Shown: piece after piece, positions 16,310-61,629 of the stretch
Position numbering within the stretch: position 1 is the stretch's first letter
Layout: each line of letters begins with the position of its first letter
From: Eledone cirrhosa
Taxonomy: Eukaryota
Length of the DNA: 64,000 nt
NCBI GenBank assembly: GCA_964016885.1
Contig: OZ024741.1
Location: forward strand, 364,684,001 to 364,748,000
Direction: 5' to 3'
Notes under the pieces: model-generated
Databases searched by the model: none
The model's input: the letters and a program-made list of their open reading frames with translations, nothing else
What the model was told of the DNA's origin: nothing
Position numbers and translations under genes: made by a program

Positions 16310-16537
16310 GGGCGGTGGATTGACAGTATCGGTAGAGAGTCGGAGACCAGGCTTTGCAGCATAGAATTACGGTCCTTTACGGTCTGAGTTCAAATTCCGC
16401 CGTTTAACTTTGCCTTTCATCCATACGGGGTCGATAAAATAAAGTACCAGTAACATACTGGGGTCGATTTAATCGACCCCCCCCCCCCCACCAAAAAAAA
16501 AATGACTGCCCTTGTGCCTATAGTAGAAATCATTATT
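16310..16537 (+). mobile_element. SINE S1, long variant with GTCGATTTAATCGAC hairpin and poly-C; duplicated 5' junction at 16270-16319
   Basis: GGCGGTGGATTGACAGTATCGGTAG A-box-like head; ends TGCCCTTGTGCCTATAGTAGAAATCATTATT. Confidence 0.9.
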
Positions 16538-16715
16538 GTATATCTGTTCTGCTACATTCGAGAAAACGTTTAACGTTTCCCGAAGCAAACCATACAGAAA
16601 TTCTCACTTTTGGATGGGATATACCAGTATGAGGAACACACGATATTTCTTTAATTAGAAGTATTCTGAGATGGGCAAAGTGTTTTGCAGAGAGAGGTAA
16701 TAGAGTTCCTGTAAA

Positions 16716-17003
16716 GGTGCGTGGCTTAGTGGTTAGGGGTGTACGGTTCCCGATCGCAAGGTCGTGAGTTCGATTATCGGCGGAGCGTTGAACAAGAGAC
16801 TATATTTCATGTTATTATAATCCATTTAGCTACCAATTATAAATTGTAACTTTAATTCAAAAGATCAGCCTTGTCACACATAGTATCACGCTGAATCTCC
16901 CCGAGAACTACATTATGGGTTAACGTGTTTGTGGAATGTTCCGTCACCTGTACGGTAGTTTTACGAGCTTGTTGGATAACTCGTCGTCGTAGCCGACAGA
17001 GGA
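16716..17003 (+). mobile_element. SINE S2, near full length
   Basis: tRNA-like head GGTGCGTGGCTTAGTGGTTAGG...GAGTTCGATT; related pieces at 13050, 37690, 39620, 51890 and 61630. Confidence 0.75.
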
Positions 17004-17040
17004 TCAACTCATACACATGTATTAAAAACCTTAACTAAAC

Positions 17041-17895
17041 TAGGGGTCATGGACCTGCGGCTCCGGAGCCGCATGGGGCTCTTTAACCCATCTCGAATCG
17101 CTCATACGCACTCTTTGTAATTTTGTATTAAAAATAAACCCACGACTGTATTAAAAATAAACCCACGACTATGACCCGCACATTGAAGTAAATCAGATAA
17201 GATTCAAAACCAAAAGTCGCAGTTAATAAAAAAACATAAATGTTAACGAAATTCATGTTACCTAAATTCAACGCGAACCTAACATATCGAATGATTTCTT
17301 ATATCTCTACGACATCCCTTCCATTGTTATTAATATGGGTTAAGAACCAGCAGCTTCGGAGTTGCATGAAGCTCTTTAGCCTATCCTGTGTAACTCTCCC
17401 GAGCTCTGAATGTTATAAAAATGTTTAAATCTGCAATTTTGCATTAAAAATATAAAAGCAAAGACTTATAAGTTATAACATAAATATTGAAACAGTTTCA
17501 GATAAGATTCAAAGTTAAAAATCGTGTAAGAAAGAAGTTTGCTAAATCCATGCTTTCTTCTATAAATTTTTGTTTATAATAAATTGTGTCTTCGTTATTC
17601 TGAATCATTATTTTTTCTAGGTAAGGGCGGTGGATTGGTAGAATCGGTACAGCGTTGGACATCATGCTTTGCGGCTTAGAATTATAGCCCTTTGCGGTTT
17701 GAGTTCAAATTCCGCCGAGGTTTAACTTTACCTTTCATCCTTACGGGATCGATAAAATAAAGCACCAGTAATGCACTGGGGTCGGTTTAATCGACATTCC
17801 CCTTCCCTAAAATTGTTGGCCTTGTGCCTAAATCAGAAACCATTATTTTTTCTAGGTAAACATTGCTCTTTAAATTGAAAAGATTCCCCGCACTC
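17041..17895. mobile_element. Probable non-autonomous hAT-type DNA transposon relic containing an S1 SINE
   Basis: Left end TAGGGGTCATGGACCTGCGGCTCCGGAGCCGCATG resembles hAT/Charlie termini; internal direct repeats; the right end is uncertain. Confidence 0.35.
17625..17840 (+). mobile_element. SINE S1 with a 19-bp TSD
   Basis: CATTATTTTTTCTAGGTAA at 17606-17624 and 17841-17859. Confidence 0.93.
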
Positions 17896-18273
17896 GTACT
17901 TAGTTCATTCATCCATTATGTCTTAAAGTCATGTAAACGTATTTTCCTATTAATTAGAAAGCGCAAATCGGATATTATTTCACTAATATAACAGAGGATA
18001 TCCAAAAGATTAGCGTCTTACAATCGATGCAGTGATCTCTTGATATAGCGGTCGATAAGTTAATACTTATCGACCGCTAAAAGGTAGAATTTAATCATCA
18101 GAACGATGGGGAGTAAGTATTAATTCTTGTAAAATTGGGCTGACATTCAACAAATATAATATCGTAGAGAGATTTAATTCTTTCTTTGATGCAAGATGGC
18201 GAATCACTATACTTTTAAATATTTTATATTAGAAAATATCGCAAACGTTTGGAACATCTGTTATATATATATA

Positions 18274-18455
18274 TAGGAAAAGAGTCAGGAGCCGACGGCT
18301 GAGCTCCGACCGTTTCGACAGCTAGATACGAAATGGTTCGGATCTACCTGTCGAAACGGCCAGACCTAAGCCGTCGGGTCCTGACTCTTTTCCTATTATC
18401 CACTGTACTACCCTAAGTATTGAGTACCTGGTATCTTACCACACCATCTTTGTTA
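18274..18455. mobile_element. (TA)n-flanked palindromic mini-element (family P1)
   Basis: About 120-bp hairpin ATAGGAAAAGAGTCAGGA...TCCTGACTCTTTTCCTAT plus a 60-bp tail. The same structure is inverted at 55775-55980; fragments at 19310, 33797 and 58980. Confidence 0.85.
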
Positions 18456-18467
18456 TATATATATATA

Positions 18468-59195: not shown

Positions 59196-59255
59196 GCTGT
59201 CTGATGAGGTTATAGCTGTTGCATAATGGTTACCATCGAAATATATTTAACACCA
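59196..59255 (+). ncRNA. Decayed hammerhead-like motif in a (TA)n-flanked unit
   Basis: GCTGT-CTGATGA-G...C-GAAA-TATATT-TA-ACACC; stem II is imperfect. Confidence 0.4.
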
Positions 59256-60319
59256 AATATGGATAAACGAAGTTTATATATATATATATATATATATATA
59301 TATATAAATTTAGAAGGAATAAGGGGTTGTGGGCTTACTTGATAAAGTGTATTTAGAAATAAAAGTAAAGCAGAAACAAGGGACAGGTCCCCTCTTCAGT
59401 TGTCTGTTGGAGCTCTCGGGCATTTCAATGATATACTTCTCTCTCTCTCTCTCTCTCTCTCTCTCTCTCTCTCTCTCTCTCTCTCTCTCTCTCTCTCTCT
59501 CAAACACACACTTACAATCCTCTTTCCAGCGTGACTGACATTTTACACGACATTTACAACACCATTAATACAATATAATAGATATTTGTATTTACGCCGG
59601 CTGCTTTAGTCCATATAAAAACTCAGTAAAAATCGCATTAGCTCGATGGATATAGACTGTTTATGCATAGATTTATTTCCCTATACCAAATATTTAACTT
59701 ATGGACCGAATTTCTATTAAATGTCTTCTAAAAGAATCAATGTTTTCAATTATATTTCTTTCGGTTACGAAGTTTGTTCTTTCTCTACTCTCCACATCAA
59801 ACGTTTTTTTCTTTTTGATCAAAAGCATTATAATTTGTTTACTAAGTTCTATCTCTCAAACTTATTGAAGTTATTCTCTTAACTGTCTTTTACTTCAACT
59901 AATTTTCTCTTAAACGAAGTGATAAGATATTTTCACAGTTTCTCAGTTCATATTCGAGATAAAATGATTTCTTTCTGTCCAAATAGTTACATTAACTTTA
60001 CTGCTCTTTCATGTCCAGTGACGAATATCCTTCGTCATGGCATAATTAATCTGAATCATCCTGGCTATCACAGTCTTCGATAAGGAAACAGCAAAATAAG
60101 TTACGTGAAATCTGTATTATGCAGACAATAGATACGACAAAAATCTGTTTTATCGATGATGTGTATGGTCCCATGTGTAGGGGCGCTGTATTGACATACG
60201 GTGTTTCATGGGCATTTTAAGCCTGGCGGAGCCCATCCCTCACCAGGCCTGAGTACAGCAGATTTCTTCCAGAGAAAGATAGAAAGTGAGAGAGAGGAAA
60301 TGAGAATGAGATATAGAGG

Positions 60320-60455
60320 AAGAATCGACATCAGTACTTGACTGGTACTCTTTTTATCGGCCTCGAAAGGATGAAAGGCAAAGTTGACCTCGGCGGGATT
60401 TGAACTCAGAGAGCCGGAACTTACCTTCTAGCGACTTTGCCAATACGCCGCCTTT
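60320..60455 (-). mobile_element. Degenerate S1-related SINE; an older copy lies at about 60640-60725 (+)
   Basis: GGATGAAAGGCAAAGTTGACCTCGGCGGGATTTGAACTCAG. Confidence 0.75.
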
Positions 60456-61155
60456 TGTCGAAGCTAAACTTTATATTTCAACCACTCTATTACTACTGTT
60501 TATGTATCACAGAAATAATAAAAATGAGAGGGCAGCCATATTGTTCATATGAAAGTCTAATTTGATCGCTTAAAAGCACTGGAATTAGTTATGGTTGTGA
60601 AATATTCTCACTTTTAATTAGAGATTATAAACATAGCATATCTGAATTCAAATCCCACCGAGGTCAACTGAGCCCTGAATCTTTTCGAAGTCGATAAATG
60701 AAGCACCAATCTAATACCGGGGTTGAGGTTTTCCCCATCTCTCTTTCTTTAGATGAAATCGGACGTGCTTCGACCATGAGAGAGATGGACTCATCCAGGT
60801 TTAAAATATCTAAAACTCACTGCGTCAGGACGGCGCCACTACAACACCACTTTATTTTTTAAAATCTTATACGTTGAAATTATAATAACATAGTAGCATA
60901 GTTTATATGAAGCAGGATTGTAAAGTATGTGGTTAGGATTGTTTTAGAAAGCTAATACAATACCAGTTAGAAATACAGGAATGAAGACTAGAGTCGCGTA
61001 AGACAAATAAAGCAAGAAACATGTAGCCTTTTACATTATATTTCATGATATTTCTAGCTTAGCACCCCTTCAAGAAGTATGACATGAAAGTGAAACTGCT
61101 GTTCTGTTTGTCTTACGTTACTCTAGTTTTCATTCCATTATTTATAACTTGCATT

Positions 61156-61338
61156 TAGGCGGTGAATTGGCAGTATCGGTAGAGGGTTGGACGCTATGCT
61201 TTCTAGCATAGTTACGTCCCTTTACGGTCTGAGTTCAAATCTCGTCGAGGTTAACTTTGCCTTTCATCCTTACGGGGTCGATAAAATAAAGTACCAGTAA
61301 TGTACTGGGTTATTGCTGGCCTTGTGCCAAAAGTAGAA
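61156..61338 (+). mobile_element. Full-length SINE S1 with a 19-bp TSD
   Basis: ATTATTTATAACTTGCATT at 61137-61155 and 61339-61357. Confidence 0.95.
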
Positions 61339-61408
61339 ATTATTTATAACTTGCATTGTACTTGTTTTCTCAAAACCTATGTAATTACATTATATCTTCC
61401 TTTATATA

Positions 61409-61543
61409 GAGTTACGGCCCTTGCGATTCTGAGTTCAAATCCCGTCGAGGTTAACTTTGCTTTTCATCCTAATGGGGGTTGATAAAATAAAGTACCAGTA
61501 ATACACTGGAATAATTGATGGCCTTGTGCCTATTGTAGAAACA
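61409..61543 (+). mobile_element. 5'-truncated SINE S1 with a 20-bp TSD
   Basis: ATTATATCTTCCTTTATATA at 61389-61408 and 61544-61563. Confidence 0.93.
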
Positions 61544-61629
61544 ATTATATCTTCCTTTATATAAGGAACTTGTATAGGCATAAACGTTTTATACCATAAC
61601 CTATGCGAGCGCGCGCGTGTGCGTGCGTG

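Follow-up and report, generated by a model that had tools for sequence, protein, structure and literature searches.

Which LINE (long interspersed nuclear element) moves S1, a high-copy SINE (short interspersed nuclear element)? The question is raised by a 64,000-nucleotide stretch of Eledone cirrhosa DNA (GenBank assembly GCA_964016885.1, contig OZ024741.1, positions 364,684,001 to 364,748,000 of the forward strand), hereafter the window, in which S1 copies lie among the remains of two related Tx1-type LINE families, ATT-Tx1 (22.1-29.3 kb, minus strand) and CTAT-Tx1 (39.96-47.35 kb). A preliminary description of this sequence had proposed that S1 is mobilised by an ATT-targeting Tx1 with relaxed specificity. 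As detailed below, the 3' tails of S1 and of both Tx1 families are alike, and one small hairpin is predicted for all of them. We consider it probable that S1, a SINE of tRNA type, depends for its mobility on the trans action of this octopod Tx1 lineage, with a hairpin of the stringent type as the link.

The S1 family and the tail it shares with Tx1-type LINEs

S1 copies were collected by BLAST with the 17.6-kb copy and aligned (alignment A1), leaving out the 51.4-kb copy with its internal TA run. The window holds 11 tailed copies and 2-3 older tail-less relics (10.4, 60.4 and 60.7 kb), within 55 kb. As expected of a SINE, S1 is short (185-225 bp), non-coding, interspersed and present in high copy. 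Two subfamilies can be told apart, one of short copies (~190 bp) and one of long copies (16.3 and 17.6 kb) that carry 35-45 additional nt ahead of the tail. Over 91-93 core columns, the 10 tailed copies of A1 agree with the majority sequence at 88-97%. When full-length copies were scanned with consensus motifs for RNA polymerase III (Pol III) boxes, an A box was found in 4/5 and a B box in 5/5, with about 65 nt between them. Because ARAGORN found 0 tRNA genes and Rfam gave no tRNA among its matches to E=1, we infer the tRNA origin of S1 from these boxes. The microRNA matches returned by Rfam fell mostly on simple repeats, all under the gathering score, and were dismissed.

As to abundance, 210,032 of the 12,467,656 reads of a restriction-site-associated DNA sequencing run (X23) map to one S1 copy at a likeness of at least 80%, and the S1 body was also found in contigs of three further organisms, with no RNA record among the listed carriers. 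Most copies in the read data diverge at 61309 into the long-subfamily insert, so that the tails of these copies are not seen. As regards the SINE superfamilies with a central conserved domain (CORE, Deu, Meta and V), motif searches in the supplements of two papers and in full texts gave no match to the S1 body. S1 is probably already present in some repeat library under another name.

The last 36 nt of the 11 S1 copies and of seven Tx1 ends align without a gap (alignment A2). The LINE tails compared with S1 were those within the window, Tx1-type and Dong-like. From CCTTGTG to AGAAA, the Tx1 tails, anchored at their 3' ends, are identical to the S1 majority at 12-15 of 20 positions, and an identity of at least 14/20 is reached at 3 of 109,764 other positions of the window. 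The motif CCTTGTG-N8-AGAA(A), with at most one mismatch, occurs 16 times against 1.1 expected (0/100 shuffles), 15 of the 16 occurrences being S1 or Tx1 ends; the preliminary description had reported this motif, and it is present at the places given there. For the five Tx1 tails tested (of seven), shuffling with a register slack of +-3 gave p values of 1e-4 to 7e-3, and 0.2% of random 45-mers from the window reached 14/22, an upper bound since the elements stayed in the control. In the stem region S1 matches CTAT-Tx1 at 15-17/24 positions and ATT-Tx1 at 13-14/24.

Two details of the earlier comparison have to be amended. The linker between the two tail motifs had been quoted as CCTAAAGT, which is that of the 48.5-kb copy; the commonest is CCAAAAGT (5/11 copies). 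The longer match of the 16.5-kb copy, TGCCCTTGTG, is not evidence for the family, because it depends on a C that is private to that copy (1/11) and breaks the stem described below. Outside the window, the combined SINE/Tx1 tail pattern was met in viral (1), metagenome (36) and prokaryote (21) loci, none of them with an S1 body or a Tx1 open reading frame (ORF). These loci were taken as chance, one of them being a 29-nt match over the pattern itself only. A Tx1 C-terminal query found no relative among viral contigs.

The tails also bear on whether S1 is moved by an element targeting (AAT)n of the kind represented at 29388..30702, a LINE 3' fragment that, from its motifs, we take to be Dong/R4-like. 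Its tail matches S1 at 9/22 positions only (shuffle p 0.54, for a slice that ended 4 nt before the junction), and, as had been noted before, the S1 tail has the polarity of ATT-Tx1, opposite to the AAT tail of the Dong-like fragment. One S1 copy does lie within that tail, and among the recently active LINE groups of Octopus vulgaris Dong-R4 is described as the most numerous (PMC13282606), but S1 sites are mostly outside microsatellites. We rejected the Dong-like element as partner for want of a tail match, and a Dong/R4-type origin of S1 mobility seems to us very improbable.

The bases that flank CTTGT can pair in each family, as TGGC/GCC(A) in S1, TGCC/GGC(A) in CTAT-Tx1 and AACC/GGTT in ATT-Tx1 (AACC-CTTGT-GGTT at 23401-23416 in the near full-length copy). 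The predicted hairpin has a stem of 3-4 bp and a five-base loop (CUUGU), and the families differ by double changes. On A2, 84.7% of the 72 cells of this stem are paired, with 11 two-sided changes that affect three of the four pairs (G-C 10 against C-G 6; G-C 14 against A-U 3; U-A 9 against A-U 2). Neither the paired share nor the covariation score was equalled in any of 500 shuffles, and six slid controls were all lower, while the counts of stem pairs and of pair types did not exceed those of the shuffles (202/500); the shuffle result is inflated, since the rows of the alignment are related. RNAalifold, unprompted, predicted the same 3-bp stem, and the hairpin was the minimum free energy structure of 5/7 tails folded singly. 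Compared with S1, the stem differs at 3/4 pairs in ATT-Tx1 and at 1/4 in CTAT-Tx1, the middle pair of S1 being flipped with respect to both. C-N5-G sites with two further Watson-Crick pairs number 318 of 4,024 in the window, that is 8% by chance.

Spacing is shared as well: of the 10 S1 copies that have a flanking repeat, 7 have the junction 22 nt past the start of the motif, as do the two intact ATT-Tx1 ends. The covarying hairpin and the identical distance from hairpin to junction constitute support that goes beyond the preliminary description. The 3' untranslated regions (UTRs) of ATT-Tx1 and CTAT-Tx1 are 57-59% alike apart from the hairpin and the downstream AATAAA-GAAA, and all Tx1 tails keep these two parts. 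The remnant at 42.2 kb consists of them alone; its hairpin, with loop TTTAT and one G-U pair, is a natural minimal tail. In the third ATT-Tx1 end (22129-22151, minus strand) a G>A change affects the loop-closing base, and CAAC/GTTG can form around a 6-nt loop; the hairpin therefore survives with its register shifted. The sole variant listed for X23 within 61313-61339 affects the outer stem pair (A>T), and the end reads AGAAAC(A/C).

These data weigh on the idea that mobilisation is relaxed, any LINE with an apurinic/apyrimidinic-type endonuclease (APE) copying S1 through its AUU end while the hairpin is an unselected remnant. That the stem is short and marginally stable fits this idea, as does the report that 3' microhomology aids priming in several clades (PMC6007223). 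We nevertheless judge it quite unlikely: double changes keep the stem between Tx1 families whose 3' UTRs have otherwise diverged, and a Tx1 remnant of ~30 nt still keeps it.

Target sites and the choice of a partner

Exact target-site duplications (TSDs) of 8-20 bp flank seven of the 11 tailed S1 copies; of the other four, two lie within (ATT)n runs, one shows a 6-bp repeat and the last lacks a repeat. Together with the strong 5' truncation of four copies and the simple-repeat end, these TSDs are marks of target-primed reverse transcription. The four TSDs given previously are exact, at 17606 (19 bp), 53225/53456 (12 bp, minus strand), 61137 (19 bp) and 61389 (20 bp); that list omitted two, at 10922 (11 bp) and 11087 (8 bp). 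The two further copies said to sit in AAT/ATT tracts are indeed found, at 30.9 kb and 48.36 kb, in (ATT)n runs. At 53 kb the TSD is a genuine duplication, because the reverse transcriptase (RT) frame to its left continues in register into the right TSD copy. This frame belongs to a fragment at 52808-53711 (minus strand), split by the tandem S1 pair, which we presume from its motifs to be Penelope-like and which gives a weak RVT_1 match (E 0.0045).

The tandem pairs at 53 kb and 11 kb were each counted as one target site (copies 10933..11083 and 11095..11283 share one ATT site), which left five independent sites. All five begin with ATTAT or no more than 1 nt away from it (p ~3e-11 for a pentamer frequency of 0.26%), in agreement with what had been claimed for the clear TSDs. 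Exceptions to the pattern are the 51.4-kb copy, which has no TSD and ends at GTTAT, and the 16.3-kb copy with its 6-bp repeat only. ATTAT is preceded by C in four of these sites and by T in one, which would place the bottom-strand nick at a T-purine step, like that of the L1 endonuclease (EN), whose nick step is TpA (PMC6007223). Long ATT runs hold 2/9 of the S1 sites, close to the fraction of ATTAT pentamers that lie in such runs (66/288, 23%); S1 therefore needs ATTAT and not a microsatellite. In X23, the consensus of the loose 5' flanks was ATT-periodic at 61166 (agreement 0.41 over 8,087 reads) and T-rich at 61158 (0.46 over 12,485 reads), with recurrent head-to-tail joints, which weakly supports an ATT bias genome-wide. 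The bias alone names no partner, because an AUU-ended RNA favours such sites under any enzyme that primes by pairing. The relaxed specificity of the earlier proposal stands as one of two accounts of it; the other, in which the AUU end pairs with the nicked target, does so just as well.

We also considered a LINE of another clade, unseen in the window and ending in ATT repeats (RTE-BovB being the likeliest, or CR1 or L2), with the likeness of S1 to Tx1 due to chance or an old relic. RTE, CR1 and L1-Tx1 are each credited with 13 recently active families in O. vulgaris (PMC13282606), cephalopod Ceph-SINEs are reported to carry RTE-derived parts (PMC5786205), and the TSD start of RTE-related elements tracks the terminal repeat of their RNA (PMC6007223). 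Under this alternative, the hairpin, the loop, AGAAA and the 22-nt spacing must all match Tx1 by chance (~1e-3 x 0.08 per LINE end). In this small set of sites, some features also speak against RTE: C is the base before ATTAT in 4/5 of them, not the T of the Tn-TA signature, which combines a T-stretch at P-10 with TA at the nick (T directly precedes the TSD in 1/5, n=5), and three TSDs of 19-20 bp exceed the 7-15 bp given for most RTE elements and are nearer the 7-18 bp of L1-clade elements (PMC6007223). We hold a partner from another clade to be improbable.

Several observations weigh against a Tx1 partner. The shared stretch is only ~20 nt long at 60-75% identity, and upstream of the stem identity falls to background (4-8/20), whereas the tails shared by plant and algal SINE-LINE pairs are longer, ~50-100 nt (PMC3747384). 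An equally good match has a chance of ~1e-3 per LINE end (in a control that includes the elements), and sequence alone is therefore not decisive in a genome with many LINE families; across dozens of them, the tail sequence by itself would leave a coincidence chance of several percent. The covariation comes down to about three events in an alignment of related rows, two between the Tx1 families and a single one between SINE and Tx1. Tails folded singly have weak z-scores (+0.6 to -2.3), and in 2/7 the hairpin is not the minimum free energy structure. TTTT, a feature of the RTE signature, is found at P-10 in 2/5 sites (n=5), and RTE-BovB is reported as expanded in octopuses (PMC8967140). Finally, the S1 stem resembles the CTAT family and the S1 target the ATT family, and for this reason the partner may be either the ATT family or a sister family.

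That the partner is exactly the ATT-Tx1 family of 22-29 kb, its endonuclease preference for ATT repeats setting the S1 sites, is a sub-case of the Tx1 explanation that we find possible but doubtful. ATT polarity and the 22-nt junction offset are common to both, both were inserted at AAT runs of the same Dong-like fragment, and their ages overlap, the ATT-Tx1 copies being 94% alike. Against this stand the mismatch of three stem pairs, where the CTAT family has one, and the small share of S1 sites in long ATT runs, which all three ATT-Tx1 ends adjoin. From the earlier proposal we accordingly keep the Tx1 lineage as the best reading, on the grounds of the covarying hairpin and the 22-nt spacing, and not the ATT-targeting family specifically, since the stem is nearer CTAT-Tx1. 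The actual partner may be a third Tx1 family located outside the window.

With a partner from the Tx1 lineage, S1 would be transcribed by Pol III and its RNA hairpin would be bound by the Tx1 ORF2 protein (ORF2p). The APE endonuclease would nick the bottom strand at ATAAT/purine, the AUU end of the RNA would pair with the freed 3' end and prime reverse transcription, and a second nick 8-20 bp away would yield the TSD. A bolder version, which we put forward only tentatively and do not expect to hold in full, is that this lineage recognises RNA by a minimal hairpin of ~22 nt and that the appended AUU or CUAU repeat, rather than the endonuclease alone, picks the target. S1 would then have captured the module with an AUU end, escaped its confinement to microsatellites and come to rank with the most abundant elements of the genome.

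The Tx1-type LINEs and other features of the window

The positions of the S1 copies and of the LINEs are collected in Table 1.

Table 1. S1 copies and LINE remains in the window, by position
Feature	Position	Strand	Remarks
S1 short subfamily, 5'-truncated	10933..11083	+	TSD 11 bp (10922-10932 / 11084-11094)
S1 short subfamily, full length	11095..11283	+	TSD 8 bp (11087-11094 / 11284-11291)
S1 long subfamily	16310..16531	+	6-bp flanking repeat only; private C breaks stem
S1 long subfamily, full length	17625..17840	+	TSD 19 bp (17606-17624 / 17841-17859)
ATT-Tx1, third copy, short 3' fragment	22126..22273	-	variant hairpin
ATT-Tx1, 5'-truncated	22339..23339	-	94% identical to 3' end of 23391..29340 copy
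ATT-Tx1, near full length	23391..29340	-	broken ORF1, APE endonuclease, RT; (ATT)n on both sides
LINE 3' fragment with restriction-like endonuclease (RLE type), Dong/R4-like (presumed)	29388..30702	+	AAT polarity; tail without S1 match
S1 short subfamily	30712..30893	-	within (AAT)n tail of Dong-like fragment, ATT polarity
CTAT-Tx1, 5'-truncated	39957..42148	+	in (TATC)n; tail TGCC-CTGGT-GGCA
CTAT-Tx1 3' remnant, ~30 nt	42201..42231	+	hairpin + AATAAAGAAA only, between (TATC)n runs
CTAT-Tx1	42330..46006	+	ORF2 nearly complete, broken; tail GCC-CTTGT-GGC
CTAT-Tx1, 5'-truncated	46025..47347	+	tail GCC-CTTGT-GGC, then (TCTA)15
S1 short subfamily	48361..48535	+	follows (ATT)8; TSD not resolvable
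S1 with internal (TA)n	51387..51624	-	no TSD; 3' flank GTTAT; ATTATT 20 bp upstream of 5' end
Two tandem 5'-truncated S1 copies (53347-53444, 53237-53334)	53237..53444	-	three copies of 12-bp TSD
S1 short subfamily, full length	61156..61338	+	TSD 19 bp (61137-61155 / 61339-61357)
S1, 5'-truncated	61409..61543	+	TSD 20 bp (61389-61408 / 61544-61563)

Both LINE families are likely members of the Tx1 clade, as judged from their predicted proteins. Pfam recognised Exo_endo_phos, RVT_1 and zf-RVT in their ORF2, and the closest solved relatives of the proteins are L1 EN and L1 ORF2p. The RT scored 187 bits (43%) to an alligator protein named 'transposon TX1 149 kDa' (an automatic name), 86 to human L1 ORF2p and 67 to R2, its nearest named relative being an Argonauta hians protein (72%). 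ORF1 of ATT-Tx1 has one CCHC knuckle (CX2CX4HX4C) near 27964, and such a zinc knuckle is a feature of Tx1-clade ORF1. In an unrooted tree of 25 rows, which lacked an L1 outgroup as well as curated Tx1 references, both families and the Argonauta protein formed one well-supported group, a lineage separate from the fish and alligator proteins. A long CAG/CAA tract (poly-Q or poly-N/S) lies at 28440-29020 (minus strand) in the ORF1 region of ATT-Tx1.

Within the window, the LINE ends adjoin repeats in every case, (ATT)n for 3/3 ATT-Tx1 and (CTAT)n for 4/4 CTAT-Tx1 ends; these runs may partly be the elements' own tails. At 39887-47404 four CTAT-Tx1 ends follow one another in tandem with (TATC)n between each. 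These copies are 74-85% alike and thus represent successive insertions of different subfamilies into one microsatellite. Another nest, at 22112-30923, has formed at AAT microsatellites, with the Dong-like LINE in AAT polarity and three Tx1 and one S1 in ATT polarity, the same repeat being used by two LINE clades on opposite strands.

The window is AT-rich (38% GC) and, beyond a satellite, consists of microsatellites and retroelement debris. The satellite, whose 16-bp unit is repeated about 573 times (82% match), occupies 1-9002 and shows higher-order periods of around 535 bp. A 24-bp tandem duplication at 16270-16321 runs from the 5' flank into the first bases of the 16.3-kb S1 copy and is possibly a template jump at the 5' junction. 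A second tRNA-like interspersed repeat, ~230 bp long and with a different 3' end, is present at 16711-16938 (plus strand) and 61677-61901 (minus strand), the two copies being 69% alike. Three further interspersed families were seen between 18 and 57 kb (18267-18463 and 55773-55987; 32263-32450, 48546-48805 and 50695-50967; 35227-35774, 53779-54219 and 56004-56509), some of them with internal inverted repeats resembling MITEs (miniature transposable elements with inverted repeats).

S1 and Tx1 beside known SINE/LINE pairs

Tail sharing mediated by a hairpin is the standard stringent mechanism of SINE/LINE pairs. Octopus tRNA-derived SINEs, OK, OR1 and OR2, were reportedly described by Ohshima and Okada in 1994; we liken them to S1 by description only. 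The same holds, by description and not by sequence, for the octopus 'tRNA-Deu' and 'tRNA-Core' SINEs, which are very abundant and have tRNA-type heads (PMC8967140). SINEs are the largest class of octopus repeats, given as ~40% of repeats (PMC8967140) and as 11.6% of the O. vulgaris genome (PMC13282606), and in the literature searched we found no paper naming the partner LINEs of octopus SINEs. The full-text searches gave no octopus SINE-Tx1 pair; most subscription papers, Repbase Reports and several supplements were outside their reach, and an octopus repeat library could already note the pairing. Searches of supplements for the tail or body motif of S1 returned nothing relevant.

The only precedent for a Tx1-driven SINE that we found, in the accessible parts of the literature, is crocodilian SINEU, assigned to the Tx1 machinery through shared targets, ages and heads (PMC4494074). 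As for SINEU and Tx1-Mar, the assignment of S1 to Tx1 draws on a shared target preference and overlapping ages, and tandem insertions sandwich a TSD (PMC4494074). The heads of SINEU are of U1/U2 type and its tails are poly(A), and the accessible text reports no LINE sharing the SINEU-1 3' terminus (PMC4494074), whereas S1 has tRNA-type boxes in its head and an ATT end, and its link to Tx1 is a shared structured tail. This kind of link is closer to that of ZmSINE2/3 with LINE1-1_ZM and of SINEX-3_CR with L1-1_CR, where an L1-group 3' hairpin shows compensatory changes and a conserved loop and 3' flank (PMC3747384). Those pairs involve plant and algal L1 elements and ~50-80 shared nt (PMC3747384), unlike the animal Tx1-type LINEs, ~22 nt and 3-4 bp stem of the present case. 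In the review table of SINE/LINE pairs (58 according to the text), the L1 group appears only in maize/sorghum and Chlamydomonas, and the part available has no Tx1 row (PMC3747384). Bivalve HCD SINEs are likewise mollusc tRNA SINEs with LINE-derived tails (PMC11481361, PMC4824008), but the partners named in the accessible texts are CR1, CR1-Zenon, L2 and Nimb and not Tx1, with 0 occurrences of 'tx1' in that of PMC11481361. As to the LINEs, Kibi and Koshi, fish Tx1 elements, insert in tandem into microsatellites as those of the window do, their targets being (TC)n and (TTC)n (PMC4494074) instead of (ATT)n and (CTAT)n.

Altogether, the resemblance of the two tails and their predicted structure make S1 and Tx1 good candidates, backed by structure, for a SINE-Tx1 pair that shares its tail. 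If true, the list of clades that serve SINEs as partners would grow by one, Tx1, with a shared tail that is structured. It would also place stringent RNA recognition in the animal L1/Tx1 group and so bear on whether such recognition is ancestral there, a question posed as open for the L1 group by PMC3747384. A 22-nt module with a swappable repeat would allow the parts of the endonuclease and of RNA-DNA pairing in Tx1 targeting to be tested, and, should the minimal module be real, it would represent an unusually small stringent recognition signal.

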